64,000 bases of DNA from a bacterium (GCA_021816845.1 JAKAWT010000001.1:70087-134086), one strand, 5' to 3'. Positions 3,971 through 47,439 are shown, counted from the stretch's first letter. The notes: generated by a model not told the origin, from the letters alone. Numbers and translations are program-made.

Positions 3971-4534
3971 ATGAATATCAACACCATATTGTTTTATAGG
4001 ATTAACTCAATTATAGCTATTCACTATTTTAATATATTTTTCATCCTCTTTTCTGAGTATTTCATATATATCTTTATAATTTCAACAATATTAATTTTTT
4101 TTATCAAGAATAGAGTAAGTACAAAGCAGAGTAATCAAAATATTATTATATTATCATTATTATCTGCAATATTTGGAGTTATAATAAATGTAATCACTAA
4201 AATTTTTTATTTTGACAATACACCTTATAATATTTTGCCAGGCATAAATAAAATAATACAACTGCCATATTTTAGTATATTATTCTCAAATTCACTTGTT
4301 ATATTAACAGCAATTACAGGCATTATTTATCTATATAACAAAAAGCTTAGTTATTTTTATATTGGAGGGTTAATACTTATTGGGTTTTCAAAAATAGCTA
4401 TAGGACAATATTTTCCAATATACGTAATACAGAGTTATATAATAGGTATTATATCTGCTATTATAATCTATAAATGCCAACATCTATTCTATTTAATATT
4501 TAAGAATATTCAAGCTCTGATCAGTAATAAATAA
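3971..4534 (+). CDS. hypothetical polytopic membrane protein
   Basis: 187-aa highly hydrophobic ORF with several predicted TM segments and no recognisable motif. Its 3' end overlaps the RNase P RNA gene on the opposite strand, so the exact stop or the reality of the C-terminus is uncertain. Confidence 0.4.
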   Translation: MNINTILFYRINSIIAIHYFNIFFILFSEYFIYIFIISTILIFFIKNRVSTKQSNQNIIILSLLSAIFGVIINVITKIFYFDNTPYNILPGINKIIQLPYFSILFSNSLVILTAITGIIYLYNKKLSYFYIGGLILIGFSKIAIGQYFPIYVIQSYIIGIISAIIIYKCQHLFYLIFKNIQALISNK

Positions 4535-4890
4535 GCCGGATTCTGTTTATGTGTTCATCTATCTTGAGACAATATTTCTACTATCTTCCTTGCGTCTTAT
4601 TTTGACTTGCTGGAGATGGAGGTTACAATGCCTTGATGAATCACTTCTCAAGCGGTAGTCTCTTACACTGCCATTTCACCCTTATCCAAAAGATCTAAAT
4701 TCTAGGATCAAGATCCTAAGATCAAAATATTTAGGACGGTATATTTTCTGTTGCCCTTATTCTAAAGATCTCTCCTTACTATATGTTAAATAGCATCTAC
4801 TTCATTGCCTTCCGACAATGCCAGTCCAGACTTTCCTCACACATAGGTTCTTACACTTATGTGCGCGAACACTTATATTACTGATCAGAT
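4516..4890 (-). ncRNA. rnpB: RNase P RNA (bacterial type A-like)
   Basis: The minus strand contains GGAAAGUCUGGAC (P4 5' strand, plus 4823-4835), AAGGGUGAAAUGGCAGUGUAAGAGACUACCGC (the conserved P10/11-P12 region, plus 4648-4679) and ACAGAAUCCGGCUUA (P4 3' strand, plus 4533-4547). Terminal P1 pairing is CUGAUCAGUAAU/AUUACUGAUCAG (plus 4877-4889 with 4516-4528). Local GC is higher than the surrounding DNA. The ends are approximate. Confidence 0.8.
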
Positions 4891-15960: not shown

Positions 15961-16032
15961 TGGGAGATAGTTTAATGGCAAAACGCTACGCTCTGGACGT
16001 AGTAAGTCTAGGTTCGACTCCTAGTCTCCCAA
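15961..16032 (+). tRNA. tRNA-Gln (anticodon CTG)
   Basis: Manual cloverleaf fold: acceptor TGGGAGA/TCTCCCA with U1-A72, D-stem GTTT/AAAC, anticodon stem CTACG/CGTAG with loop CTCTGGA, T-arm CTAGG-TTCGACT-CCTAG. No encoded CCA. Confidence 0.7.
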
Positions 16033-17345: not shown

Positions 17346-17430
17346 AATTCTAATCGGAGAGAGAGAGATTCGAACTCTCGATACCATAATGGTATACTAG
17401 CTTTCCAAGCCAGCGCACTAGGCCACTATG
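17346..17430 (-). tRNA. tRNA-Ser (anticodon GGA), type II with a long variable arm
   Basis: Reverse complement: GGAGAGG-TC-GCA-TAGTGGCCTAG-TGC-G-CTGGC-TTGGAAA-GCTAG, long variable arm (TATACCATTATGGTATC), GAGAG-TTCGAAT-CTCTC, then TCTCTCC-G. 3-bp D stem and ~85 nt length are typical of Ser. Confidence 0.75.
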
Positions 17431-17446
17431 CGACCTCTCCATAATG

Positions 17447-30770: not shown

Positions 30771-32988
<2,218 letters not shown>

Positions 32989-32992
<4 letters not shown>

Positions 32993-34389
32993 GATAGTAA
33001 AAATTTCATTAATTCTTGATTTTCAACATCTTCTTCTTTGAAATCAGATATATTTCTCAATTTCTTAATATTCCTTTTCATTTTATATACATCTTCTACT
33101 TTTATATCCATATAATGTGAGAGTACAACTGTAATTAATACTTTCTGTTCAAATAAAGTATATGATTCTCCAATATCTTGGTTAAATAGAATATTAATTT
33201 TTTCACCTCTATCCAAATCTGCAAGTACTGATGATGGCATATTAACTCCAAAATGAGAAAATTTATACGCTTGATCATATTTAATTAAGGCCATATTTAG
33301 TTTTTCTGATATAGATTGCATAAATATCTCCTGCACTCTTTTACCTATTCTAGATACTGAGATTCCAGTATTGATTGCTGGCCTTATTCCTTTTAAATAT
33401 AACTCCCTATCAAAAAAAAGTTGCCCATCTGTTATAGATATGACATTAGTAGGAATATATCCAGTGAAATCATTGTTCTGAACTGATATTATGGGAAGGG
33501 CAGTCAAAGATCCCTCGTTATTTTTCACCCTACCAGCTCTCTCAAGAAGTCTAGAGTGAAGAGAGAAAACATCAGCAGGATAAGAATCTTTACCTGGAAA
33601 AACACCCTCTATCAAGGATATTTCCCTATATGATTTAGCATGCTCTGTAAGATCATCATATACTATTATGACATCCTTTCCCATACTCCATAAAGCCTCT
33701 CCAATGGAACATCCTGCAAATGGAGCAAGATAGGACTCAACAGGAAGCAATTCTGCTTTAGCAACTAAAACAACAGAAAATTCCAGCGTTCCACTATCCT
33801 CAAGTGATGTGATAATGCTAGAGACTTGATCATTTGTCTTACCTATTAGTACATAAACAATAAGTGATTTATCTTTTTGGTTACGGATAAGATCAATAAG
33901 GAAAGTTGTCTTTCCAGTCTTATTATCTCCAAGGATAACTTCTCTTTGACCAAAAGCTAATGGGAATAATGTGTCTACAACAAGATTACCTGTTTCTATT
34001 TGTTTTTTTATATCATCCCTTTGTATTATTGATGGCGCATCCCTAAAAATATCCAATTCTTTTGTATCTAATATTTTTCCTTTCCCATCTAGAGGCTCTC
34101 CAAAAACATTTATTACTCTACCTAAAGTATTCAAACCAAAAGACACAGTAAGAGTATCTTGTAGAACTAAGGCCATTTGTCCGGGGATAATACCTCTATC
34201 TTCAATGAGTACAATCTTTGATATATCATCATTAATCTCATTAACAAATCCACGCGAATTAGATTCAAATAATATTTGGCTTCCAGTTTTTAAATTTCTA
34301 AAACCTCTAACCTCACAAAATATTGAGTTAACAGCAATAACTTCACCAACTGCAACCCCATTTTTTAAGTTCTCTTTAAAACTAATCAT
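32989..34389 (-). CDS. atpA: F0F1 ATP synthase subunit alpha
   Basis: Walker A (GDNKTGKTT) and alpha-type N-terminal beta-barrel. Confidence 0.9.
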
Positions 34390-34987
34390 TGGCTTTTATT
34401 TTTATATTGAAATCCTTTGATTCTAAATCATTTTGTATATCTTGATTTTTAGATACTACATCTCCCAATTTTGAATTTGTTGGATTGTGATCTATAGGAG
34501 CTATAATATCAATGATCTTATCAAGATTTTGGTTCAGTACATTAGAGTATGAGAAATCAAAATATGAGAAAGATGTTTTTAATACTACTCCTCCTCCTAT
34601 AGAATGATCTATCTTGTATGCAATGATAACATTCCCTTTAATTTTTTCTCTGAAGAAATTATATAATTTATCTTTGAAATCATCTGTAGCCTCTAAAGAT
34701 AATATTACATATATTTTTTTAGTATTCTTTTTAAAATCTAATAGAGCTGATTGTAATCGTTTTAGTTCTTCTATATCATCTGTTACTTTTCCATCTGTAC
34801 TGATCCCATAAGTATTAGAAAGCAAACTTAAAAGTGAAGTATTAATAACAAAATCACCCTCAAAATTGACATCTACTCTTCTTTGTATATCTCTAAATTC
34901 TATAAATTTTATATACAGATTCAAAGACCTAATACAAATATTAAGATATTCTATATCTCTAATTTTTGAAGCTAAATTATAATCCAT
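34382..34987 (-). CDS. atpH: F0F1 ATP synthase subunit delta (OSCP-like) with a C-terminal extension
   Basis: VIIAYKIDHSIGGGVVLKTSFSYFDFSYSNVLNQ resembles the delta C-domain. Operon position fits. Confidence 0.55.
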   Translation of the reverse strand: MDYNLASKIRDIEYLNICIRSLNLYIKFIEFRDIQRRVDVNFEGDFVINTSLLSLLSNTYGISTDGKVTDDIEELKRLQSALLDFKKNTKKIYVILSLEATDDFKDKLYNFFREKIKGNVIIAYKIDHSIGGGVVLKTSFSYFDFSYSNVLNQNLDKIIDIIAPIDHNPTNSKLGDVVSKNQDIQNDLESKDFNIKIKAND

Positions 34988-35837
34988 ACCTTATTTCATC
35001 TATATGTTTTTCTAAGATATCAAAAATATAATCTTCTTGATCTTCTAAAGATACAGTGATATTCAAAACTTCTTTTATAACATTAACTATTACTAAAGCT
35101 GAGTCCTTTCTTATTGAATTAATAAAGTCTTCCCTAAGCTTCTTTGCATCTTCATTTAATTGATCAGAAAAAACACTTACTTTTTCTTTTTCTTGGTTTG
35201 CAACATCATCTAGTATCTTGGTAGTTTTAGATCCAATCTCTTGGAGATAATTATTATATATTTCCATATTCATTTTGGAAAATGAATCTATGCTTTGATT
35301 AATCTTATTCAAAACTTCCTCTATAGTTTTTGAAATTTCCGCTTGAGATCCTGAAAGCATTGTCTGATAAGCACTTTCAAAACTTTGCACTTGTGCTTCT
35401 AGATTTCTATTTATATCCTGTAACCCTGAGACAAGAACATTGGAAGAATCAGACATAGCTGACTCTTGGGTGGAAAGATTCTTTTCTATCTCAGCAATTT
35501 TTTTGTTATATATATCTGTGAGCTTATTTTTAAAATCTTCTTCTATTTTTTTATACAGTTCTTGTATAACAAACGATTCATTGTTAACTTCATTAATAAT
35601 ATCTGTAGTCTTGTTCTCTACTTCACCAACAATTTTATTTACATCTTTATTGTCTATATTTGCAGATTTTAGTATAACCTTTGAATCTAAACCTTTAGTG
35701 TCAATTGAATTTTTATTAACCCCAGCATCAAGATGTCCAGCATCAGGATGCCCAGATTTAGAACGCATCAGGTAGAAAACGAGTAACAAAAACAATAATA
35801 TAAGTAAAACTATTACAATTATAACAATCAGTAACAT
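34977..35837 (-). CDS. atpF: ATP synthase subunit b-like protein (N-terminal TM plus long coiled coil). Unusually long at 286 aa.
   Basis: Single N-terminal TM helix (LLIVIIVIVLLILLFLLLVFYL) and an E/K/Q-rich helical body. First gene of the atp block. Identity inferred mainly from position. Confidence 0.45.
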   Translation of the reverse strand: MLLIVIIVIVLLILLFLLLVFYLMRSKSGHPDAGHLDAGVNKNSIDTKGLDSKVILKSANIDNKDVNKIVGEVENKTTDIINEVNNESFVIQELYKKIEEDFKNKLTDIYNKKIAEIEKNLSTQESAMSDSSNVLVSGLQDINRNLEAQVQSFESAYQTMLSGSQAEISKTIEEVLNKINQSIDSFSKMNMEIYNNYLQEIGSKTTKILDDVANQEKEKVSVFSDQLNEDAKKLREDFINSIRKDSALVIVNVIKEVLNITVSLEDQEDYIFDILEKHIDEIRYGL

Positions 35838-35950: not shown

Positions 35951-36772
35951 ATGGATGTTAAAATTTTTTATAAATCATTACTTCTTCTGTTTTTATCATC
36001 ATTATTCCTATTTGTCCCTATTAGAGATATAAATGCAAATAGCATTGGTAACATAGCACAAAACTATATTGCTTTAACTCACGGAATGCAAACTGGAGAA
36101 ATAGTATCATTAATATCAAAAAATACTTTTGCAGGAGTATATCCATCAGCAAAACCCAATGACCCTAATGTTTTTGGGGTAATTGATTTTAATAGTACTG
36201 TAATTACAGGAATAACAGCTCCTAATAGAATCCCTATTATTCAATCAGGAACAATTAATGTATACGTATCAAACTTAAATGGAAATATCCAAAAAGGTGA
36301 TCTTATAACTTCATCAATAGTTCCTGGAGTAGGAGAAAAAAATACAAATACAGGAATGGTAATAGGTGTAGCTAATGCATCTTTTTTGAAGAGTAATATA
36401 ATAAAAACAGAAACTATAAATGTGAAAGGTAAAAATGTCAAAATAAGTATAGAAAAAATTCCAGTACTATTAAGTTTTCAAGAATATTATGATAACAATG
36501 CCCTACAAAGCCAATTTAATGGATTTCTTCCAAATTTTATAAAAAAAGGAGTTTCTTTTGTAAATATCATCATAGCTATAATTATAGTATTGATGGGTTT
36601 TATAATTTTTCTAATTGGAACTTTATCATCATTAAGACAGCTTATGGGTGCTATGATAAGAAATCCTACATCAAAAAGATTAGCAATAAATAGTGCGATA
36701 ATAGTCATTTTTATATTACTTTTAATTTTCATCCTTACAATAGCTATGGGTTATGCATTCTTAGTAATATAA
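35951..36772 (+). CDS. family C protein: secreted domain plus C-terminal 2-TM hairpin (RNP loop). Paralog of 29738..30490. First gene of the surface-protein cluster.
   Basis: Signal peptide with cleavage-like site (ANS), conserved GNIQKGD/IPGVGEK blocks, and C-terminal LRQLMGAMIRNPTSKRLAINSAIIVIFILLLIFILTIAMGYAFLVI. Confidence 0.55.
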   Translation: MDVKIFYKSLLLLFLSSLFLFVPIRDINANSIGNIAQNYIALTHGMQTGEIVSLISKNTFAGVYPSAKPNDPNVFGVIDFNSTVITGITAPNRIPIIQSGTINVYVSNLNGNIQKGDLITSSIVPGVGEKNTNTGMVIGVANASFLKSNIIKTETINVKGKNVKISIEKIPVLLSFQEYYDNNALQSQFNGFLPNFIKKGVSFVNIIIAIIIVLMGFIIFLIGTLSSLRQLMGAMIRNPTSKRLAINSAIIVIFILLLIFILTIAMGYAFLVI

Positions 36773-36831
36773 ATTAAAGTCTTATTGACAAATACTGGCA
36801 ATTATTATAAATTGATATAAATTAATATAAG

Positions 36832-37950
36832 ATGAATAAAAATATGAAAATAATGAAAAGAATGGCGTTAAGGATAACAAATATATTCTTAATATTATCT
36901 TTATCGTTATATGCTTTTTCAGCATTACCTTTCTTAGCTAATACAGATGCAGCATCTTTGACTCCATTAACTGATGTTATGTCTAATTCTGGAGGATATG
37001 GGACAGGTGGCCCTCAAACAGTTTCAACTGCGAATGTATCTCACTCTTTTTCGTATACAACCCCAACTGCATATACAACCTCAAGTACTATTGATATATA
37101 TATACAAACAGCATCATCAATAGGTGGAGGTGAAGCAGCTACTGCTTTCTCTTCTGTAGCTGCAACTACCTCTACTGTAACAGTAAATGGTACTGCTGCA
37201 ACTGCAGTGACTCTAACAAATGGGGTATCAGATTCTAATTTTGCTGGATACACATTTACTGAAGTTGCAATTACTGTACCTGTAGCTATATCATCTGGTG
37301 CAACTGTTACAATAAATGGTATTACTGCAACTAACCCTTCTACTGCTTCATCATCAACAAATCAGTATGTTATTGATATCCAAGACTCAAATGGTAATGA
37401 CGGATATATGGCTGTACCTATAGTCACTAATGCATCAGTTGCCGTAACAGGAAGAGTTACCCCTTCTATAAATTTTAGCCTATCATCAAATACAACATCA
37501 TTTGGGGTAATGCAACTTGGAGTAGTTAACACATCGTCACCTGCAACAACATTGACCGTTTCAACAAATGCTCAATCTGGTGCAGTTGTATATGTATATG
37601 ATCATGGTAATGGAACATCTGGAGGTTTATATAACTCTATAGCAAATCATCTTATCCCATCATCTAGTACAACTTTAGCTGGAGGAACTGAAGGATATGG
37701 TATTAATGCTGCAACTACTTCAACCAGTGGTACTGGAGGAGTTATAGGTACAATGTCTGTATCATCACCATATAATGGGACAGGAGATGCAGTTGGAGCT
37801 TTAGCTTTATCATCTACAACTCTAGCCACTGGTACAGCTCCCATGTACGGAGTTACTATACAAGTAAACTATCTTGCAGCTATCAGCGTCACTACCCCTG
37901 CTGGTATATACAATGATGATGTAACCTACGTAGCTACTGGAAAATTCTAA
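36832..37950 (+). CDS. family A secreted S/T/A-rich protein. Conserved N-terminus SLTPLTDVMSN and C-terminal module ...VNYLAAISVTTPAGIYNDDVTYVATGKF.
   Basis: Signal peptide (…LANTDA^AS). The C-terminal ~130 aa align with 39931..40890 and 45562..47439 (TGRVTPSINFSLSSNTTSFGV..., TEGYGINA..., SPYNGTGDAVGAL). Confidence 0.6.
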   Translation: MNKNMKIMKRMALRITNIFLILSLSLYAFSALPFLANTDAASLTPLTDVMSNSGGYGTGGPQTVSTANVSHSFSYTTPTAYTTSSTIDIYIQTASSIGGGEAATAFSSVAATTSTVTVNGTAATAVTLTNGVSDSNFAGYTFTEVAITVPVAISSGATVTINGITATNPSTASSSTNQYVIDIQDSNGNDGYMAVPIVTNASVAVTGRVTPSINFSLSSNTTSFGVMQLGVVNTSSPATTLTVSTNAQSGAVVYVYDHGNGTSGGLYNSIANHLIPSSSTTLAGGTEGYGINAATTSTSGTGGVIGTMSVSSPYNGTGDAVGALALSSTTLATGTAPMYGVTIQVNYLAAISVTTPAGIYNDDVTYVATGKF

Positions 37951-37975
37951 AATATAGATAGTATTTGGGTAATTA

Positions 37976-38977
37976 ATGAAAAATTTTATAGTCTCTAAAA
38001 AAACATATATTGTTTTTGTAACAGTTTTAATAATATTATTACTCTCCCCTATTAATTCTTTTGCACAGCAACCAAACAGCACATCTACATTTTCTGGTGC
38101 TTTAAACTCCTCAACAAAATCTCATGAAGGAGCTACAACAAGTGGTATTACAGTATCACCTCTTCTAACGACAATATTTCTGAATAAAACAGAGAACTCT
38201 ACCCAATATATAACTTTATTTAATAACAACTCAACCCCAATAACTGTCAGTTTAGCATTCTCCAATTTTATATCAAAAAACCAATTTGGAGCACCTGAAT
38301 TTTTAGGTTTTTCAAAAGGACAAATACAGGATACAAATTTATTAATACAATCTCCTACTTCTATAACGCTTCCACCTTTAAAAACAATAAAAGTACCGTT
38401 AACAATTCTCACAAATAATAATACTCAACCAGGAGAATACTTCATTGGAGCTTTTGCTGTCATTAAAGGAAATACTATTAGATCAGCACCGGTATCTATA
38501 GCTACAAATTCTGCTATAGGATCATTATTTTTAATTAGAATTAATGGAAAAGTTTCTGAGACAGGATATATACAATCTTTTTCTGCAACAAAAAGTTTGT
38601 TTACTGGTGGGGCTGTAAACTTTCAGGCAATATTTAAAGACACAGGGAACGTAGACCTTATACCTCAAGGAGTAATTGATATATATAATATGTTTGGGAA
38701 GAGAGTAGCAAGTATTACATTTAACCAAAATAGAGCTATAGTCCTACCTGTTGGTGTGAATAGTAGAATATATAATTCTTCATGGAATCCTGAATCTTTG
38801 GCTTTTGGAGAATTCACAGCAAAATTATTTTTAACATATGGAACAACTACAGTAACAACCATATATCAATCTACAAATTTTTGGATAATACCTTTATGGC
38901 TTGAAATACTTGCAATAATAATAGTTATACTTATAGTTACATGGATAGTAAGGTTACGCTTAAAATTAAGGACATAA
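37976..38977 (+). CDS. family B protein: secreted ~270-aa domain, C-terminal TM anchor and basic tail (…WIVRLRLKLRT)
   Basis: Signal peptide (…NSFA^QQ). Shares LIRINGKVSETGYIQSFSATK with ITINGKIISSGYIQNFGATK in 44642..45568, and a similar architecture with 42390..43304. Confidence 0.6.
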   Translation: MKNFIVSKKTYIVFVTVLIILLLSPINSFAQQPNSTSTFSGALNSSTKSHEGATTSGITVSPLLTTIFLNKTENSTQYITLFNNNSTPITVSLAFSNFISKNQFGAPEFLGFSKGQIQDTNLLIQSPTSITLPPLKTIKVPLTILTNNNTQPGEYFIGAFAVIKGNTIRSAPVSIATNSAIGSLFLIRINGKVSETGYIQSFSATKSLFTGGAVNFQAIFKDTGNVDLIPQGVIDIYNMFGKRVASITFNQNRAIVLPVGVNSRIYNSSWNPESLAFGEFTAKLFLTYGTTTVTTIYQSTNFWIIPLWLEILAIIIVILIVTWIVRLRLKLRT

Positions 38978-39882
38978 TACCTAGACACCTAGTGTCTGAA
39001 CACATTATCTTAACAAATAAAAGTTTAAGTAACTTAATTAGTTATATTGTATCTTTAGTATTTTTATTCATATCTTTGTTTATCTTGATAATAAACATTT
39101 CTTCCTCAGTGTATGCCCAGAATTTTTCACAACCATTTACCCAAAGTGCAGGTAAACAAACTGTAAATATTCACGCTTATGCCCCACTACTAGATAACTG
39201 GGCATATATAATATCCAGTCAGGGGAAAATATATATTAGACAAGAAAATACGATATATATGAATGAAAAGATTCCTGTATATGTACAAACATTTGGAACA
39301 AATAAAACACCACTCCGTGATCAAACAATTTTTCTGTCATCACCTGATACGAAATATGGTCTACATATAATCGAGCCTAAAATCCCAACAAATGTTAAAG
39401 GATTAACAATCGGCTATATAACATCAACATACAATCAACCTATTATGTACACAATCATAGCAACTGACACGACATATGCAGAAGCCCCAGTAGTATTTAA
39501 AAACATGCTTCAAGTACAATACTATCCATCAAGAAACTATAAGCCTCCATTCTTTACAAATATTCTTAATTCCTTAGGAAATTTATTCTCATCAACAACA
39601 AATATCTTAGATATATTTAGTATTGTCATTGCAATTATCACATTTTTAATAGTGGAAAGAAAATTGCTAATATCAAAAATATCTATAACAATACAAAATC
39701 AATATAGAGTTTTATTTGGTATGCTAAGGATCTTAGTGATACCATATATTATATCAATTTTTGCGTTATACAACCAACACTCATTAATTAATTATATATC
39801 TATTGCACTCCTTGTACTGGTTAGTGTACATTTTATATTAGTATATATAAAAAATCTGAAGGAAGCAGTCTCTAAATCTTAG
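38941..39882 (+). CDS. membrane protein: N-terminal anchor, ~170-aa extracytoplasmic domain and a C-terminal 3-TM domain. Start uncertain.
   Basis: Overlaps the previous gene by 37 nt, so the real start may be further downstream. Hydrophobic C-terminal segments: IFSIVIAIITFLIV, VLFGMLRILVIPYIISIFALY, ISIALLVLVSVHFILVYI. Confidence 0.45.
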   Translation: MDSKVTLKIKDIIPRHLVSEHIILTNKSLSNLISYIVSLVFLFISLFILIINISSSVYAQNFSQPFTQSAGKQTVNIHAYAPLLDNWAYIISSQGKIYIRQENTIYMNEKIPVYVQTFGTNKTPLRDQTIFLSSPDTKYGLHIIEPKIPTNVKGLTIGYITSTYNQPIMYTIIATDTTYAEAPVVFKNMLQVQYYPSRNYKPPFFTNILNSLGNLFSSTTNILDIFSIVIAIITFLIVERKLLISKISITIQNQYRVLFGMLRILVIPYIISIFALYNQHSLINYISIALLVLVSVHFILVYIKNLKEAVSKS

Positions 39883-39930
39883 GATACAGATTTTAGAGAT
39901 TGTATTGCTTGATAATATAAAGATATAAAT

Positions 39931-40890
39931 ATGAACACTTTAACTAAGGATAACCTTAACAAAATTAAAAAAAGTGTGTTAGTTTTGGTACTTATATTAT
40001 TAGTATTGTCTACAGGTATTTTATATTCTGTAAATGCAGCAACACTGACTCCAATATCAGATACTATGTCAAACCAAACAGTATCAGTGTCATCAGCAAA
40101 TAATTTCTCATTTGATGCAGTATCTGGTATTCCAGCTTCAGGAACAGTGACCATAACATTTCCATCAGGGTTTACTTCTGTAGCAGTGACTTCAGCAACA
40201 TCATCTATGTCAGGTGCAACATTTTCAGTTACTGGTAATGTTGTAACAGTAACAAACGGTACTACTGCTGTAACAGCCGGAACTACAGTAACGATATCTA
40301 ATATAACAGCCATAAATCCTAGTACAGCATCATCTACATCTACTCAATATATTATTACAATATCTGATTCAGGAGGTGACAACGCATCAATTGCTGTTGC
40401 CATAGTAACAAGCTCTCAAGTAACTATATCTGCAACAGTAAATCCTACAATAACTTTTTCAATCTCGTCCAATAGTATAAGTTTTGGTGTGTTAACTGCA
40501 ACCACAGTTTCATCTCAAACTAATACATTAACACTTTCAACTAATGCTTCTAAAGGGGCTAATATCACAGTCTATGACCTTAATGCTGGACTATTACAAA
40601 ATGTCTCATCTGGACACTTAATTGCATCTTCTACAGCAACCCTATCTGCAGGAACAGAAGGGTATGGTATTAATGGATCTGGGGCGGGAGGATTAACAGT
40701 TGTATCTCCGTATAATGGCACAGGTGATGCGGTTGGAGCATTGGTAAAGACAGCGCAAAATTTAGCATCCATATCTGTACCAGTATCAGGAGGGACAGTA
40801 ACTGTAAATTATTTGGCTGCAATATCTGCCGTAACCCCAGCAGGAACATATGCTGATACAATAACATATATAGCTACAGGGAATTTTTAG
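39931..40890 (+). CDS. family A secreted protein (N-terminus ATLTPISDTMSNQ, C-terminus ...VNYLAAISAVTPAGTYADTITYIATGNF)
   Basis: Signal peptide (…SVNA^AT). Shares a ~270-nt near-identical DNA segment with 45562..47439. The C-terminal module is conserved with 36832..37950. Confidence 0.6.
   Translation: MNTLTKDNLNKIKKSVLVLVLILLVLSTGILYSVNAATLTPISDTMSNQTVSVSSANNFSFDAVSGIPASGTVTITFPSGFTSVAVTSATSSMSGATFSVTGNVVTVTNGTTAVTAGTTVTISNITAINPSTASSTSTQYIITISDSGGDNASIAVAIVTSSQVTISATVNPTITFSISSNSISFGVLTATTVSSQTNTLTLSTNASKGANITVYDLNAGLLQNVSSGHLIASSTATLSAGTEGYGINGSGAGGLTVVSPYNGTGDAVGALVKTAQNLASISVPVSGGTVTVNYLAAISAVTPAGTYADTITYIATGNF
40069..40330. repeat. ~270-bp near-identical direct repeat, copy 1 (inside 39931..40890)
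   Basis: Sequence starting ATCAGATACTATGTCAAACCAAACAGTATCAG and running to ...ACTACAGTAACGATATCTAATATAACAGC is ~95% identical to 45675..45945. Confidence 0.8.
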
Positions 40891-40964
40891 AAATTTACTT
40901 TATAAGAATCATCTAGATATATTTAATATTAAACTCTATTCTGCTATTATTTATATATTAAAGT

Positions 40965-42386
40965 ATGAAAAAATATATATTCCTCTTTATATTTTGTTTT
41001 ATAATATTATTTGTACCAAAGATACTGGTGCCTGAAACCGTTCTTGCCCAAAATTATGTATCTACAGACTATATTTTATCAGATCCAGTTTTTGGAGAAT
41101 CAGGTCCTTATGTATCATCTCCATCATTTAAAGAGAGAAGTGCTCTTGGACAAACAGCTACAGGTATATCACAAAGTACCAATTTTATTTTAAAATCAGG
41201 ATTTGAATATTATTCTGGACAATCTGTTCCATCAATTACAATGTCACTAAATACCAATTTGATTAACTTCAATACTGTAGCTCCAAATACAATAGTCAAA
41301 TCTCCAACAAATTCAATCATTACAATATCATCCAATGCAGAATCTGGATATAACCTTTATATAGAGCAAAATAATAATCTTACAAACCAACAAGGGGATA
41401 CTATACCTCAAGTTTCAAATGGAGCAACTACAACTACTGCAGCACCATGGACATCGGCATCATATTATGGTTTAGGATATAACTGTTCTTCAGCGAATAC
41501 GTATGAACAAGCAGTTCTTGTAAATTCTCCAATTGGATTCTGGTCACTAGGAGAAACAACAGGTACTACAGCATACGATTTATCTGGAAACGGGAACAAT
41601 GGAACATATACAGGAGGATATACTCAAGGAGCCCCTGGCCCTATATCTAATTCTAATTTGGGAAATTCTACACTATTTAATGGATCTAATTCATATGTAT
41701 CACTCCCAAATGTAATACAACCATATACAATAATTACTATATCCTTATGGTTTAAAACAACATCTGATGGAATAATATTAGGATATCAAAATGCTACGGT
41801 AGGATCGGCTCAAAATGATTATGTACCAATTATATACATAGGAACTGATGGTAAATTAAGAGCTGAATTATGGAATGGTTTAGTTGATCCTATAACTACA
41901 ACTAATACTGTCAATGATGGTAGATGGCATAATATTACTCTGGTTGCAAACTCCACTACTCAAAGTTTATATTTTGACAATTCTCTTGTAGGTACATTAT
42001 CTGGAACAATAACTAATTTAACTATGACTTATAATCAGTTAGGTACTGGGTACGGATCAAGTTGGCCATCAACAAATGGATCATGGTTTTACTTTAAAGG
42101 AGGTATCTCTAACGTATCTATATATACATCTGCCTTATCATCTTCTCAAATACAAACCCTTTTTAATGATGGTATAAATTCTACTCAAGCGTTTTGTTCT
42201 CCCGATTTTATAAATACAAATTATTATAGACAACTATCATCTACAACAAATACTGAATTTGCATCATATTCCTCTATAGCAACAAACCAAACAATAACTG
42301 TTGGTTATGCAGTTAATGTATCAAACATTCAAGCATCAGGAATATATACAAACAATATTATATATACATTAACAGGAAATTACTAA
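40965..42386 (+). CDS. secreted protein with a LamG/concanavalin-A-like lectin domain and a family-A-like C-terminal end (…IIYTLTGNY)
   Basis: YDLSGNGNNGTYTGG...GAPGPI...LFNGSNSYVSLPN...ITISLWFKT...DGRWHNITLV is the LamG_3/ConA-like jelly-roll pattern. The C-terminal ...ASGIYTNNIIYTLTGNY is like the family A ends. Confidence 0.6.
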   Translation: MKKYIFLFIFCFIILFVPKILVPETVLAQNYVSTDYILSDPVFGESGPYVSSPSFKERSALGQTATGISQSTNFILKSGFEYYSGQSVPSITMSLNTNLINFNTVAPNTIVKSPTNSIITISSNAESGYNLYIEQNNNLTNQQGDTIPQVSNGATTTTAAPWTSASYYGLGYNCSSANTYEQAVLVNSPIGFWSLGETTGTTAYDLSGNGNNGTYTGGYTQGAPGPISNSNLGNSTLFNGSNSYVSLPNVIQPYTIITISLWFKTTSDGIILGYQNATVGSAQNDYVPIIYIGTDGKLRAELWNGLVDPITTTNTVNDGRWHNITLVANSTTQSLYFDNSLVGTLSGTITNLTMTYNQLGTGYGSSWPSTNGSWFYFKGGISNVSIYTSALSSSQIQTLFNDGINSTQAFCSPDFINTNYYRQLSSTTNTEFASYSSIATNQTITVGYAVNVSNIQASGIYTNNIIYTLTGNY

Positions 42387-42389
42387 ATT

Positions 42390-43304
42390 ATGCAATTAAT
42401 CAAAAAATTTATAATTTCAATTATAGTATTATCGTTTCCTCTTGTATCCTCAATAAATACCTTCGCAATCTCGCCACAGGAAAGTATAAGAGTTACCCCT
42501 GCTTATATATCTCTAACTGAAAAATCCGGATCAAGTGCGTATGAGAATCTATCAATATTCAATAATTCCAACACTACTTTAAATCTTAATATATATACAC
42601 GAGGTATACAGTATGATCATAAAAAATTGATACTTATAAATTCTATATTACAATCTAATATTGAAAATTGGATTTCTATAAAAACTACAAAAATAAGTGT
42701 ACAACCACATAAAACACAGAATGTGCCAGTATATATTAATGTACCAAAAAATGAGAAATATGGTTCATACAATGGTGGAATAGTTATTTCAAATATACCA
42801 CAATCAAAAGTAGGAAATTCTACAATATTCGGAAGAATAATTGTGAACGTTTTTGTGAATATAAGAGGAAAAAATAAAGGATACTCAAATATAAATATAT
42901 CAAATTTAAATCACCCTTCTTTAGTATTTCAAAATTCAGCAATATTAAATTTAGAAACTTATAATCCTGGCCCGTATAATAATGCATATAAAACTAATAT
43001 TTACACATCATCAATATTCGGTTTATCAAATACTAATATTGGTAGAATAGGATTAGAAAATATACTTGTAGGGCAAAAAAGATACAATACTGTAGATTTA
43101 AAAAATTTAAAAATAGGTATAAATTATGTACAGATACAGCTTTCAAATATAGGTAATAATACTAAATCAAATGTGAATTTTACTATTTTCTATATACCAT
43201 TCTATACGATATATATTCTAATACTTATATTAATAGTAATATTTATGTACCATCTATATAGATTAAGAAAAATACAAAGAAAATTAAAAAACCGTAAGCA
43301 ATAA
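42390..43304 (+). CDS. family B protein: secreted domain, C-terminal TM anchor and basic tail (…YRLRKIQRKLKNRKQ)
   Basis: Signal peptide (…NTFA^IS) and the same architecture as 37976..38977 and 44642..45568. Confidence 0.55.
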   Translation: MQLIKKFIISIIVLSFPLVSSINTFAISPQESIRVTPAYISLTEKSGSSAYENLSIFNNSNTTLNLNIYTRGIQYDHKKLILINSILQSNIENWISIKTTKISVQPHKTQNVPVYINVPKNEKYGSYNGGIVISNIPQSKVGNSTIFGRIIVNVFVNIRGKNKGYSNINISNLNHPSLVFQNSAILNLETYNPGPYNNAYKTNIYTSSIFGLSNTNIGRIGLENILVGQKRYNTVDLKNLKIGINYVQIQLSNIGNNTKSNVNFTIFYIPFYTIYILILILIVIFMYHLYRLRKIQRKLKNRKQ

Positions 43305-43494
43305 TCATTATTAAATTCTGTAATAGTTGATTGATTAAAATTTCATGGTAAAAAATACTAAATATACCATTTTTTTTAAATCTCAACTTCCACTATATAT
43401 GTTTTAGCTATTTTGAATTTTTTCATATAACTATTATTACATTAAACAACCTAGTTACTAAATACTAATATATCTATGTATTTAGATTTTATCG

Positions 43495-44496
43495 CTATTT
43501 AAAAATGTATATACCATCTTTAATATCATATGACTTACCACATTTTTGACATACTAATTTTTTAGAATATAAATTCTTAAGATCTCCATGACATATTGGG
43601 CAGCACAAACTATCTTTAAAAATATCTTTAATATCTTTTGCTTTATCTAAAAAATTATTTTTTAAATTATCATCTTTTAAAAGATATAAAAATATGCTTG
43701 GACCAAAATATGTTTTAGAAAATATAATTCCAAATTTATTATCCAAAGATATTAATATGTTCGTATTAAATAGTTTTTTGAAATATTTTTGTCTGAAATT
43801 TGATGCTGAAAAAACTTTCTTAACTATTAAGTGATTTTTTACTAGAGTTTTAATAATATATGAAGGTGAAAAATTTAAGAATATTTGATCATTTAAAAAT
43901 CCTTGAGAATCATTTTTATGCGGAATGGAATAAATATCTTGTTTTCTAAAATCTTTATCTTTAAAATGTCTCATTCTTGATAACATATGATCCTTATTTG
44001 CAAATTCCAAAATAAAACTATTTGATATCACTCTTGATATTTCACTTATTGCAAGATCAGGATTTTCTATATGATGTAAAACCCTAACTAACATGCCTGA
44101 GGAGATTGATCCATCTTTAAATGGCATGTTATATATGTCCCCACAAACTTTAAAAACATTTGAATCTAGATTATTTTTACCTTCTGCTTTTTTTAGATTA
44201 GAAAATGAGTAATCAAAAAGTATTGAATATGAATATTTATTCTGGTATAGATCAGTGAGCCTACCATACCCTCCACCTATATCTATAAATGACCTCGAGT
44301 TGTTGGGTTTAGACTTAAATAGATTATTATCCTTTAATAATTTAGATAGTATATTCCTTTCAGATTGGTTTTCATATTCCCTATCTTTCCAATATTTCCT
44401 ATAATCATATTCTAAATTTGAATCATAATCTTGGACTCGTATTTTTGTATTCAAACTTTTTTTATTAATACTTCTAGTATTGGTCATAGGGTTCAT
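43495..44496 (-). CDS. class I SAM-dependent methyltransferase fused to a C-terminal Trm112-like zinc-ribbon domain
   Basis: Motif I (FIDIGGGYGRLTDL) and motif post-I/II (VCGDIYNMPFKDGSISSGMLVRVLHH). C-terminal CCPICHGDLK...CQKCGKSYDIKDGIYIF is a Trm112/DUF343-like zinc ribbon. Confidence 0.65.
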   Translation of the reverse strand: MNPMTNTRSINKKSLNTKIRVQDYDSNLEYDYRKYWKDREYENQSERNILSKLLKDNNLFKSKPNNSRSFIDIGGGYGRLTDLYQNKYSYSILFDYSFSNLKKAEGKNNLDSNVFKVCGDIYNMPFKDGSISSGMLVRVLHHIENPDLAISEISRVISNSFILEFANKDHMLSRMRHFKDKDFRKQDIYSIPHKNDSQGFLNDQIFLNFSPSYIIKTLVKNHLIVKKVFSASNFRQKYFKKLFNTNILISLDNKFGIIFSKTYFGPSIFLYLLKDDNLKNNFLDKAKDIKDIFKDSLCCPICHGDLKNLYSKKLVCQKCGKSYDIKDGIYIFK

Positions 44497-44641
44497 TTTA
44501 CATTAAAAGTATAATATTTTGTAGTCCCTATAAATATTATACTTTTATTATGTTAAACTATATAAAATAGACTTGGATCCAGATCCAATGGATCAGAACT
44601 ATTGGATCAAGATCCTCTAATCTAATCAAGTCTAGACTATT

Positions 44642-45568
44642 ATGAAAAATTTTATAAAATTAACTTTATTATTACTGCCAATACTAACAATATTTTTCGC
44701 TAGTAATATATACGCTAAAATTATTCCTGACAAAGGAATCACTCTATCACCTGTAATATCTAAGATAACATTAAATAAGGGAGAAACTTATAATGGTAAA
44801 CTATATATAACATATAATAATAACTCAAAAGTTAATGCAAATATTTTAGTTTATGCATTTAGACAATCAGGTGACACTGCACATCCGAAATTCTCAAACA
44901 AAATAAATAAACTTTCTGAATCAATTCATTGGATTAAGATTCAAAAAAATGTAACTTTGTATCCACATAAATCCATTGCAATTAACTATACAATAAATGT
45001 GGCAAATAATGCATCTCCAGGTGGACATTTCTTATCAATAATAGTATCAATAACTAAATCAGGGAATGAAAAGATTGTCGAATCTGTAGGATCTCTACTT
45101 ATTATTACTATAAATGGAAAAATTATATCTTCTGGATATATACAAAATTTTGGAGCTACAAAAAAAATATTTTTAGAAAATCCAATAAATTTATATCTAG
45201 ACTTTGCAAATACTGGGAATATACAACTATCACCATTTGGGTATATTACAATTTCAAATATATTTGGAAATACAATAAAAGTAATAGAAATAAATAAAAA
45301 TCAATCTTTAGATTTACCAAAAAGTACGAGATTGTATACTACTAATTTTAATTTGAAAAATTTTATTAATCAGTTTGGGATATACCAGGCAACTTTGAAT
45401 CTTACATATGGATACCCAGGGCATTTCGTAAATACTCAAAGTTCTAGTACATTCTATTATTTTAATTATTTATACCTAATTATATTACTTCTTATCATAA
45501 TTGTTATCATACTTTATATAATTAAAAGAAAACATAATAAAAAATTATTGTTTTTTAAAAAATGGTAA
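44642..45568 (+). CDS. family B protein: secreted domain, C-terminal TM anchor and basic tail (…IKRKHNKKLLFFKKW)
   Basis: Signal peptide (…NIYA^KI). Conserved block with 37976..38977. The stop overlaps the start region of the next family-A gene. Confidence 0.6.
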   Translation: MKNFIKLTLLLLPILTIFFASNIYAKIIPDKGITLSPVISKITLNKGETYNGKLYITYNNNSKVNANILVYAFRQSGDTAHPKFSNKINKLSESIHWIKIQKNVTLYPHKSIAINYTINVANNASPGGHFLSIIVSITKSGNEKIVESVGSLLIITINGKIISSGYIQNFGATKKIFLENPINLYLDFANTGNIQLSPFGYITISNIFGNTIKVIEINKNQSLDLPKSTRLYTTNFNLKNFINQFGIYQATLNLTYGYPGHFVNTQSSSTFYYFNYLYLIILLLIIIVIILYIIKRKHNKKLLFFKKW

Positions 45569-47439
45569 AAAAATATTCAATAAAATTTGTTACAGTATTA
45601 AGTATATTCGGATTATTTTTCTTATCAATATATCCAATATTTACTAGTGTACAAGCCGCTTTAATAACACCTTTATCAGATACTATGTCAAACCAAACAG
45701 TATCAGGATCATCAGCAAATAATTTCTCTTTTGATGCAGTATCTGGTATTCCAGCTTCAGGAACAGTGACCATAACATTTCCATCAGGGTTTACTTCTGT
45801 ATCAGTGACTTCAGCAACATCATCTATGTCAGGTGCAACATTTTCAGTTACTGGTAATGTTATAACAGTGACAAATGGTACCACTGCTATAACAGCTGGA
45901 ACTACAGTAACCATATCTAATATAACAGCTACAAACCCATCTATTGCCTCATCATCGACAACACAATATATAATAACAATATCTACATCAGGTGGTGATC
46001 AGGCATCAGTTGGAGTAGTAATAGTAGCATCGTCAACCTATGGATCTGGACCTTCAGGAGATATATATCAACAAGCTATAACCATAAATAGTACAAATAC
46101 AAGTACACTAACTAACTATCAGGTGGAAGTAACATTAAATACTCAAACACTCATATCTGCAGGTCAAATGCAGGCAGATTGTGCAGATATTAGGTTTACA
46201 GATTCTTCTGGGAATCTTCTTCCTTATTGGATTGAATCAGGCTGTGATACAACCTCAACTCAAATATGGATTAAAATTAATACTATAGCAGCATCAACAA
46301 ATACAACAATTTTTTTATATTATGGATCATTAAACGCAGCACCGGAGAGTAATGGACATACTACATTCAATTACTTTGACCAAGGAAGTCAAATCAATAA
46401 TTGGATAACTTCTGGATCATCTGGGCAGAATACAGCTACAGGAGATCCAGCTCCTTCATATTATGCAAACTCTTCAAACGGTGATTATATGTATAAAAAC
46501 ATAAACCTTACATCAAATGAATTACTAACCTTTGATGCTAATACAAATGCATTAGGAGATTTTTATTTTCTTACAAACTCCTCTGGGGCTGGGCAGATGT
46601 ATAGGACAGGTATAAGTTCTGGATGGTTCGGTTTTGCCACAACTAATTCTTGGACATCTTGGACTGCACCTACAGGTACATCTCCAATAAGTGCAAATAC
46701 TTGGAATAAATACCAAATTGCGATTACTTCTCCAACCTCTGCAACATTGTATTATAAACTAACATCAGGAGATTCTCCATTAATAAATGGTACATTACTT
46801 GGAACATATACAATTTCTAATAATGGAGGATATATAGGACTTGTAGGGGACGCAGCAGGATCAAGTAATATTACCTACTGGGATAATATTATTGTTAGAC
46901 AGTACTCTTCCCCAGAACCAACAACAACAGTATCTACAACAGTCACTAATCTGACAAATAACCAGCTACAACTTGAAGTAGGTGTTAATCCTTTTATTAC
47001 ATTCCAGGTTAGTTCTAATTCACTAAACATAGGAACTCTATCACCAACTTTGGTATCATCAGCTACAAATTCATTAACATTATCATCTAATGCTTCCAAT
47101 GGAAGCAATGTATCTGTAATGGATGCTAATGCTGGATTATATAATTCTGCTGATAGTCATAAAATAATATCTACAACCACAACTCTTCAAGCTGGAGTAG
47201 AAGGATATGGAATAAATGCATCTACTACATATTCAGGTTTAAATATAGAATACCCATATAATGGTACTGGAGATAGTATTGGTGGGCTATCCCAAACTGC
47301 ATCATCAACATTATGTTCTTCTACAACAACTGTAAATGCAGCAAATATTGTTATAAATTATCTTGCATCGATTTCAAATATAACCCCATCAGGTCCATAT
47401 CAAGATCAAGTCATTTTCATAGCTACAGGCAATTTCTAA
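45562..47439 (+). CDS. family A secreted protein with an inserted DUF2341/LamG-like module (625 aa)
   Basis: N-terminus ALITPLSDTMSNQ... and C-terminus ...VINYLASISNITPSGPYQDQVIFIATGNF. The central segment ...CADIRFTDSSGNLLPYWIESG...TQIWIKIN...TIFLYYG... matches the DUF2341 hallmark. More jelly-roll-like sequence follows. Confidence 0.6.
   Translation: MVKKYSIKFVTVLSIFGLFFLSIYPIFTSVQAALITPLSDTMSNQTVSGSSANNFSFDAVSGIPASGTVTITFPSGFTSVSVTSATSSMSGATFSVTGNVITVTNGTTAITAGTTVTISNITATNPSIASSSTTQYIITISTSGGDQASVGVVIVASSTYGSGPSGDIYQQAITINSTNTSTLTNYQVEVTLNTQTLISAGQMQADCADIRFTDSSGNLLPYWIESGCDTTSTQIWIKINTIAASTNTTIFLYYGSLNAAPESNGHTTFNYFDQGSQINNWITSGSSGQNTATGDPAPSYYANSSNGDYMYKNINLTSNELLTFDANTNALGDFYFLTNSSGAGQMYRTGISSGWFGFATTNSWTSWTAPTGTSPISANTWNKYQIAITSPTSATLYYKLTSGDSPLINGTLLGTYTISNNGGYIGLVGDAAGSSNITYWDNIIVRQYSSPEPTTTVSTTVTNLTNNQLQLEVGVNPFITFQVSSNSLNIGTLSPTLVSSATNSLTLSSNASNGSNVSVMDANAGLYNSADSHKIISTTTTLQAGVEGYGINASTTYSGLNIEYPYNGTGDSIGGLSQTASSTLCSSTTTVNAANIVINYLASISNITPSGPYQDQVIFIATGNF
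45675..45945. repeat. ~270-bp near-identical direct repeat, copy 2 (inside 45562..47439)
   Basis: ~95% identical at the DNA level to 40069..40330. Also explains the look-alike antisense ORFs 39879..40313 and 45555..45914. Confidence 0.8.

Follow-up and report, generated by a model that had tools for sequence, protein, structure and literature searches.

The locus described here raises the question of what two secreted proteins, each carrying a lectin-type jelly-roll module, do on the surface of an ultrasmall bacterium. The genes lie in a stretch of 64,000 nucleotides (nt) of DNA (GCA_021816845.1 JAKAWT010000001.1:70087-134086), hereafter called the window, to which all positions refer; it belongs to a metagenome-assembled genome of a member of the Patescibacteria or candidate phyla radiation (CPR), and an identical sequence is contained in the metagenome-assembled genome GCA_027425355.1. 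The two proteins consist of 473 and 625 amino acids (aa). Both are probably accessory subunits of a pilus of the Pam type, the 473-aa protein an acceptor-only cap bearing a laminin G-like (LamG) module and the 625-aa protein a pilin decorated with a DUF2341 module, each provided with a chaperone-like gene of its own, with the modules binding a ligand on a host cell. Domain identities and homologies, insertion points, gene pairing, synteny and mosaicism were read directly from the sequences and models.

The Pam pilus was first described in 2026, when cryo-electron microscopy of filaments of Ca. Mycosynbacter amalyticus led to PamA and PamB, two pilins that are each built of an N-terminal β-sandwich domain (NTD), one linker strand that is donated to a neighboring subunit, and an open, immunoglobulin (Ig)-like C-terminal domain (CTD). 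PamC and PamD are PapD-like chaperones with a C-terminal transmembrane (TM) helix, PamT is a single domain without linker strand and the proposed tip, and PamR is the proposed anchor (bioRxiv 10.64898/2026.03.03.709456, hereafter the Pam preprint). Models of the Pam pilus system are held in NCBIfam release 20. The profile CPR_Pam_pilin_C matches three pilins of the present locus (372, 319 and 625 aa) over the whole profile and up to the C-termini of the proteins, with E-values from 1.5e-7 to 1.8e-10. Reversed and shuffled sequences yielded no Pam match at E ≤ 1, which rules out a compositional artefact as the source of these matches. The locus also has the architecture of a pilus operon, with TM-anchored chaperone-like proteins, several pilins, a predicted tip and adjoining ATP synthase genes. 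Judged by its profile matches, the scaffold is of the Pam pilus type.

Two open reading frames with LamG and DUF2341 modules had been pointed out in a preliminary description of the window. Both exist exactly as given there, their translations contain all motifs quoted (CADIRFTDSSGNLLPYWIESG, YDLSGNGNNGTYTGG, LFNGSNSYVSLPN, ISLWFKT and IYTLTGNY), and a Pfam search recovered both families far above their gathering scores. Regarding the 473-aa protein, Laminin_G_3 (PF13385) matches residues 239-397 with an E-value of 3.3e-17 and 63.5 bits (gathering score 27.6); regarding the 625-aa protein, DUF2341 (PF10102) matches with an E-value of 1.3e-21 and 77.3 bits (gathering score 23.4). The suspicion that the segments might be disordered linkers was dispelled by AlphaFold2 (AF2), which models them as compact jelly-rolls with a predicted local distance difference test (pLDDT) value of 80-98, and by lectin-type matches in Foldseek. 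The LamG region (residues 180-405, pLDDT 80-96) is a concanavalin A (ConA)-like jelly-roll that matches, with a Foldseek probability of 1.00, domain 4 of AbnA, the lectin domain of trans-sialidase and the Hc-N domain of BoNT/TeNT; these are non-catalytic jelly-rolls, that is, lectin or carbohydrate-binding module (CBM) domains and toxin Hc-N. The DUF2341 insert matches the lectin domain of the V. cholerae sialidase, the jelly-rolls of NTNH/BoNT, DUF2341 proteins of archaeal viruses (the top structural matches) and ConA-like/LamG proteins of tailed phages. (Note that the whole 625-aa model yielded mostly meaningless multi-domain alignments in Foldseek; only domain-level matches with a probability of ~1.0 were used.)

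The scaffold that carries the LamG module is related to PamT. In the 473-aa protein, residues 89-130 correspond in alignments to the beginning of the pilin CTD, and the final 42 residues to the end of that domain. Deletion of residues 179-404 in silico leaves a 249-aa sequence that covers positions 6-241 of the 241 positions of the PamT profile (NCBIfam NF058579, an equivalog model) and also aligns with the pilin C-domain profile. An exhaustive search with scaffold residues 29-178 returned 121 clusters, 89 of which are plain proteins of the size of PamT (200-300 aa). When a profile of 55 pilins was compared with one of 46 PamT-like sequences using hhalign, the two aligned with a probability of 98.7% (E 2.5e-16) over the pilin CTD only; no counterpart of the pilin NTD or of the linker was detected by this comparison in the PamT-like family, including the 473-aa protein. 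According to the profiles, the protein thus has the PamT layout of a single CTD-like Ig domain with neither NTD nor linker strand. A subunit of this kind would be an acceptor only and would therefore have to cap one end of a fibre. The best reading of the protein is that of a tip adhesin, which is supported by its homology to PamT, the proposed tip of the Pam pilus.

The LamG module enters the Ig domain in the loop after YGFGY(N/R)C, which in many plain forms is a short Cys-X7-9-Cys hairpin. Of the cysteines that flank the module, Cys411 is invariant and Cys174 nearly so within the LamG-bearing family; because both are conserved, a Cys174-Cys411 disulfide is suggested, which probably staples the base of the inserted LamG. 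In the PamT-specific N-terminal segment (residues 30-88), the motif SxNYxL...G occurs in duplicate. In the exhaustive search, the same unit of ~50 residues was found twelve times in a protein of 2694 aa (P0214). Candidate roles of this segment are a plug, a self-complementing strand or a repeat module.

The 625-aa protein appears to retain the complete layout of a pilin. Its residues 26-158 share 85% aa identity with the 319-aa paralog and its residues 464-625 share 52%, with ~305 residues intervening, and CPR_Pam_pilin_C (NF058581) matches residues 484-625 over positions 2-148 of 148 (E 5.1e-10, 39.6 bits). The AF2 model (mean pLDDT 91.2) consists of three compact domains, namely a beta-rich NTD (33-157), the insert (163-465, pLDDT 84-98) and a beta-rich CTD (475-625). 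Low confidence is confined to two stretches between the domains, 158-162 and 466-474, the latter with a pLDDT <50. This latter stretch, NNQLQLEVG, aligns with SSQVTISAT of the 319-aa paralog, where the linker or donor strand of Pam pilins is expected, and the insert lies between the NTD and this candidate donor strand. Since NTD, candidate linker and CTD all appear to be kept, the protein could both donate and accept a strand; it looks like a decorated shaft or adaptor pilin and not like a tip.

The NTDs of the 319-aa and 625-aa pilins are encoded by a direct repeat of 300 nt (40029-40328 and 45648-45947, 90% identical), which is the largest repeat in the window. Because this repeat is 90% identical at the DNA level while the CTDs are only 52% identical, it points to a recent duplication or gene conversion restricted to the pilin NTD. 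The repeat also yields two look-alike spurious open reading frames on the opposite strand (39879-40313 and 45555-45914).

The preliminary description had placed both modules between the conserved N- and C-terminal blocks of a protein family there called family A. This holds for the 625-aa protein, which keeps the family-A N-terminus and C-terminal module and has the roughly 300 extra residues that had been noticed. It does not hold for the 473-aa protein, in which the LamG is nested inside an Ig domain and the family-A N-terminal domain is missing. The supposed polymerisation scaffold can now be identified as a pilin scaffold by its Pam profile matches. The proposal that the modules mark pilus tip adhesins stands for the 473-aa protein in view of its homology to PamT and is not supported for the 625-aa protein, which appears to retain NTD, candidate donor strand and CTD. 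The relevance for episymbiosis that had been envisaged is apt for an organism of this affiliation.

Comparison with seven related loci (six species-level genomes, L004-L009, and a contig from JGI, L010) showed that the idea of occasional family-A variants does not fit the two proteins: both are conserved and dedicated parts of the system, and in all seven loci each is accompanied by a chaperone-like gene of its own. A chaperone-like gene of the 304-aa type follows the tip gene in all of them. In L004-L009 the DUF2341 pilin, a chaperone, the tip and a second chaperone form a block in that order, whereas in the window and in L010 the pair of DUF2341 pilin and chaperone is placed beyond a methyltransferase gene; the short L010 contig ends at the 308-aa chaperone gene and holds most of these four genes. 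Up to that gene, L010 is collinear with the window except for an extra copy of the 372-aa pilin type at its start. The neighboring pilus genes of the two are 79-88% identical and the methyltransferases 66%, and the L010 tip has gained a Kelch propeller of ~290 aa and has a different LamG. The two tandem pilin genes of the 372-aa type in L010 (positions 1-2119 of that contig) are 84-88% identical to the single copy of the window; pilin copy number therefore varies among close relatives. ATP synthase genes and a core pilin block lie upstream in L004, L006 and L008, and ATP synthase genes adjoin the pilus locus in the window too. Within the stretches fetched for L005 and L009 there are no ATP synthase genes, and that of L009 is also without the core pilin block. 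The surroundings of the locus differ in L007, where ATP synthase, methyltransferase and Suf genes are all missing as neighbors.

The modules evolve as cassettes on a conserved scaffold. Among the tip homologs P0004, P0005, P0006, P0011, P0012 and P0013, identity is 85-91% in the scaffold and 45-61% in the LamG; among the pilin homologs P0054, P0056 and P0057, it is ~80% in NTD and CTD and 24-29% in the distal domain of the insert. The reverse pattern is found in the pilins P0051-P0053 (scaffold ~52%, insert 69-77%). Two tips, P0007 and P0008, have two LamG domains. A Kelch propeller occupies another loop of the Ig domain in P0012 and P0013 and is nested within the LamG in P0022; P0208 (1090 aa) combines extensive Kelch repeats with LamG, and one distant relative has an N-terminal CBM_4_9. 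Besides the 300-nt NTD duplication, no diversity-generating (TR/VR-like) or other repeats that would explain the variability were found in the window. In the absence there of a repeat that could drive hypermutation, recombination is the likelier source of the variation.

The locus encodes three paralogous chaperone-like proteins (333, 304 and 308 aa) of one architecture: a signal peptide is followed by two beta domains, and a TM helix with a basic tail forms the C-terminus. NCBIfam gave no PamC or PamD match for them; their identification as chaperones is based on architecture and on probable homology to WxLIP. A profile of the family matches EfmWxLIP1 of E. faecium (9i25_C, 9i1y_A) with an E-value of 2.8e-5 over ~225 residues, which is almost the full length. 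The Pfam family WxLIP_PGBD is touched by 5 of 19 family members, below the gathering score (21.6 vs 27.3), and DUF3324 gave no match in the chaperone-like proteins. The Pam preprint does not mention WxL and compares PamC and PamD only with PapD and FimC (bioRxiv 10.64898/2026.03.03.709456). A deep relationship between the Pam loci of CPR and the WxL/Csc clusters of Firmicutes is plausible.

This homology brings up a different interpretation of the locus, as a cell-surface complex of the WxL type (Firmicutes Csc/WxL-like) instead of a long pilus, in which the proteins with modules would be 'large WxL proteins' with host-binding domains, kept at the surface by a WxLIP-like partner anchored in the membrane. 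Besides the match to EfmWxLIP1 and to WxLIP_PGBD, it can draw on a common set of parts, since WxL clusters likewise comprise a small protein, a large protein with a binding domain and a TM partner with two Ig domains, with predicted strand insertion. The pilin CTDs, however, contain no Trp and no WxL motif (the only W-x-L lies within the LamG), and Pfam WxL gave no match at E ≤ 0.1, so that membership of the pilin C-domains in the WxL domain family was rejected. What the pilins do match is the C-domain profile of Pam, they appear to have the same NTD-linker-CTD layout as the filament-forming PamA and PamB, and the ATP synthase neighborhood is that of pam operons. We therefore attach little probability to a WxL-type complex. 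Pam and WxL systems may, moreover, be homologous, in which case the two interpretations would not be true alternatives. Membership among the chaperone-usher pili (Pap/Fim) was rejected as well: the locus has no Pfam match to an usher or to PapD, and its chaperone-like proteins are membrane-anchored.

The function of the modules and the position of their carriers can also be construed otherwise. The jelly-rolls might be enzymes acting on the host wall or on extracellular polysaccharide, or might serve as structural decoration, making the fibre stiffer or shielding it; the ConA-like fold is common to glycoside hydrolases and lyases, the Foldseek matches are domains of glycosidases, and ConA-like phage genes in Patescibacteria have been interpreted both as adhesins and as glycosidases. 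We regard this as improbable: the domains matched are non-catalytic lectin or CBM domains and receptor-binding domains of toxins, Pfam returns Laminin_G_3 and DUF2341 and no glycoside hydrolase family, and Kelch swapping, LamG duplication and fusion to CBM_4_9 are typical behavior of binding modules. It seems equally remote that both proteins are alternative tip adhesins, with the 625-aa protein also capping fibres. Lectin-type modules on both proteins and a separate chaperone-like gene for each would agree with such an arrangement, but the 625-aa protein appears to retain the NTD, linker strand and CTD of a polymerising pilin, its NTD shares 85% identity with the shaft pilin, and only the 473-aa protein is without NTD and linker.

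A Pam-type pilus with a LamG-bearing cap and a decorated pilin is accordingly the interpretation we prefer, and a number of observations count against it. Neither of the broad families LamG_3 and DUF2341 has a defined ligand, and enzymes, too, can have ConA-like folds. The pilin C-domains score 32-41 bits, under the curated cut-off of 55 bits, and the 473-aa protein scores 40.5 bits with PamT (E 2e-10), short of the curated cut-off of 240. Plain PamT-sized relatives from other CPR match PamT similarly (25-59 bits), so that the cut-off of 240 bits delimits close orthologs only; given scores below the curated cut-offs, the present locus is to be seen as a distant branch of Pam. The Ig scaffold of the 473-aa protein is poorly modelled by AF2 (pLDDT <50), and its fold is therefore derived from profile homology alone. 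When the PDB was searched by sequence with the two proteins and with the PamT-like and pilin profiles, no Pam or WxL structure was retrieved; the sole matches were LamG relatives and a non-significant match to CfaE (E 1.9). Donor-strand pairing and subunit order are predicted from the analogy with Pam, the putative filament of this organism is predicted from its genes, and the tip position of PamT is itself an AlphaFold-based proposal (bioRxiv 10.64898/2026.03.03.709456).

In the assembly that we envisage, subunits would be exported via Sec, and membrane-anchored chaperones would capture their incomplete Ig domains, both by analogy with the Pam preprint. The 473-aa PamT-like subunit would only accept a strand and would cap a fibre end, most likely the distal tip, where it would display its LamG. 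The 625-aa DUF2341 pilin would join behind the tip as an adaptor, or within the shaft as a decorated stretch, with its module pointing sideways; through its shaft-like NTD, it would keep to lateral contacts that also suit the 319-aa pilin. The plain pilins would elongate the fibre. The jelly-roll modules would contact a ligand on the surface of the host cell, most likely a glycan, as their fold and context suggest, and the replacement or multiplication of modules seen in relatives would retarget the fibre. We infer fibre formation, the order of the subunits, the Cys174-Cys411 disulfide and binding from the features described above. The coordinates of all features are given in Table 1.

Table 1. 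Features of the predicted pilus locus and its surroundings in the window (residue numbers refer to the respective protein)
Feature	Position	Strand	Basis or remark
F-type ATP synthase genes	30771..35837	-	Directly upstream of, and divergent from, the pilus locus
Plain pilin, 372 aa (second plain pilin)	36832..37950	+	NCBIfam Pam C-domain profile
Chaperone-like protein, 333 aa (third of the locus)	37976..38977	+	Architecture; synteny
Multi-TM protein with extracellular beta domain, 313 aa	38941..39882	+	Position conserved in relatives
Plain pilin of the shaft type, 319 aa; nearest paralog of the 625-aa protein	39931..40890	+	Profile and alignment
Putative PamT-like tip subunit with inserted LamG, 473 aa	40965..42386	+	NCBIfam PamT, E 2e-10; signal peptide, residues 1-28
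PamT-specific N-terminal segment, residues 30-88, SxNYxL-type motifs	41052..41228	+	Conserved in 21/21 tip homologs and in plain PamT-like proteins
Pilin-CTD-like Ig domain, part one, residues 89-178; ends in GLGYNC (Cys174)	41229..41498	+	Alignment, hhalign
LamG/ConA-like jelly-roll insert, residues 179-404 (~226 aa)	41499..42176	+	Pfam, AF2, Foldseek
Ig domain, part two, residues 405-473; invariant Cys411 near the start, ...IYTLTGNY at the end	42177..42383	+	Alignment, profiles
Chaperone-like protein, 304 aa; starts 3 nt after the tip gene	42390..43304	+	Architecture; weak Pfam WxLIP_PGBD
S-adenosylmethionine-dependent methyltransferase with C-terminal Trm112-like zinc ribbon	43495..44496	-	Pfam; synteny
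Chaperone-like protein, 308 aa, C-terminal TM helix; overlaps the first 7 nt of the DUF2341 pilin gene	44642..45568	+	Architecture; synteny
Pam-type pilin with DUF2341 and jelly-roll insert, 625 aa	45562..47439	+	Signal peptide, residues 1-32
Pilin N-terminal beta-sandwich domain, residues 33-158	45658..46035	+	Identity to paralog; pLDDT >88
Two-part insert, residues 159-463 (~305 aa)	46036..46950	+	DUF2341 sandwich, then distal ConA-like jelly-roll (~275-460)
DUF2341 Pfam match, residues 206-281	46177-46404	+	E 1.3e-21
Linker, candidate donor strand, residues 464-478, LTNNQLQLEVGVNPF	46951..46995	+	Aligns with SSQVTISATVNP of the paralog; role from the Pam preprint
Pilin C-terminal Ig-like domain, residues 479-625; ends in ATGNF	46996..47436	+	NCBIfam CPR_Pam_pilin_C

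The window has a G+C content of ~29% and encodes ordinary chromosomal genes such as those for DnaG, UvrD, LepA, RNase Y, GltX, SecDF and Suf. The series of secreted-protein genes extends from 35951 to 47439, nearly all on the + strand. In its first half, a 273-aa membrane protein is followed by the 372-aa pilin, the 333-aa chaperone-like protein, the 313-aa multi-TM protein and the 319-aa pilin; the second half comprises the 473-aa LamG protein, the 304-aa chaperone-like protein, the methyltransferase (on the - strand), the 308-aa chaperone-like protein and the 625-aa DUF2341 protein. The multi-TM protein might, at a guess, be an anchor or a terminator. The methyltransferase is probably a conserved neighbor and not a component of the pilus; in six of the seven related loci (L007 is the exception) its gene has the same place, adjoining the tip's chaperone gene and preceding nifU-sufS-sufC. 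A conceivable link to the pilus would be the modification of subunits.

Serine, threonine, asparagine and glycine make up 45-49% of the four predicted fibre proteins (the 372-aa, 319-aa, 473-aa and 625-aa proteins) and lysine, arginine, aspartate and glutamate together just 5-7%; the plain pilins contain no cysteine and no tryptophan. Heavy glycosylation of these Ser/Thr-rich proteins is a possibility, because extra density on a Ser of PamA was reported in the Pam preprint (bioRxiv 10.64898/2026.03.03.709456). Regarding RNA genes, the sole Rfam matches in the window were a bacterial class A RNase P RNA (4517-4884, - strand, 179 bits) and two tRNA genes (15961-16032, + strand; 17355-17440, - strand), with no rRNA. 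Scans for promoters and terminators were uninformative in this AT-rich DNA, in which sites were fewer than in shuffled sequences.

The authors of the Pam preprint state that the mode of host recognition of the fibre is not known; the preprint leaves this point open and mentions no lectin, adhesin, LamG or DUF2341 (bioRxiv 10.64898/2026.03.03.709456). In the present locus, lectin-type modules sit in the predicted tip and in one pilin, and they vary among close relatives. Expressible candidates for host recognition in CPR episymbiosis are thus available in the 473-aa protein (residues 179-404) and in the 625-aa protein (residues 159-463), and the tip allele is a sequence marker that could potentially be tested for correlation with host taxa in metagenomic data. 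The probable homology of the chaperone-like proteins to WxLIP would tie the CPR system to a widespread and poorly understood surface system of Gram-positive bacteria. A more far-reaching idea, possible but doubtful at present, is that the host range of Pam-type pili is determined by the LamG, Kelch and DUF2341 cassettes on tip and adaptor subunits, with these cassettes being exchanged by recombination like the receptor-binding proteins of phages, and that Pam and WxL/Csc are two branches of an ancient family of usher-less, chaperone-assisted fibres in bacteria without an outer membrane.

Among known systems, in the tip adhesins of chaperone-usher pili, FimH and PapG, a lectin module lies N-terminal to a pilin domain that can only accept a strand and with which the fibre begins. 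The locus described here resembles them in combining a lectin module with an acceptor-only pilin domain and a dedicated chaperone step. It differs in that a loop of the pilin domain harbors the lectin, that there is neither an usher nor an outer membrane, and that the folds of the binding modules are not the same. By analogy, it would work like chaperone-usher pili but is not one of them.

The Tat-fimbriae of haloarchaea are built by strand donation, and one of their minor subunits, TafC, has a laminin-G-like domain that was modelled at the outward-facing fibre end (PMC11821415). The LamG region of the present locus gives weak matches to NCBIfam TafC (NF052521), with 22-34 bits against a cut-off of 410. 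TafC, however, is archaeal and Tat-exported, its LamG is C-terminal and not nested, and it is proposed to donate a strand. For DUF2341, a role as a pilus-associated adhesin domain has been suggested in archaeal type IV pili, and the domain is frequent in giant exoproteins of CPR (PMC4858521, PMC11809585). Those DUF2341/LamG proteins are not donor-strand pilins, whereas the domain is here embedded in a pilin of the Pam type. As for ConA-like lectins, their presence in CPR genomes has been connected with attachment in general terms only. WxL/Csc clusters encode WxL proteins and WxLIP (DUF916-DUF3324-TM), and the WxL proteins are described as peptidoglycan-bound and not as pilus subunits (PMC10599100). 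A probably homologous partner protein, and small and large binding-domain proteins with a common C-terminal domain, are shared with these clusters; the C-terminal domains themselves differ in the WxL features discussed above.

The closest counterpart is the Pam pilus itself. Common to both are signal-peptide pilins with, as far as predicted for the present locus, NTD, linker strand and Ig-like CTD (PamE is also a Pam pilin), a single-domain, acceptor-only PamT, chaperones or chaperone-like proteins with a C-terminal TM helix, the lack of an usher, a CPR host and adjoining ATP synthase genes, an adjacency that is conserved and unexplained in pam operons (bioRxiv 10.64898/2026.03.03.709456). The present locus differs from it in having three chaperone-like genes where Pam has two, in a PamT-like subunit that bears a LamG (in relatives two LamGs or Kelch propellers), and in one pilin with a 305-aa unit of DUF2341 and jelly-roll. 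What is new relative to the description of Pam are the lectin-type modules on the PamT-like subunit and on a pilin.

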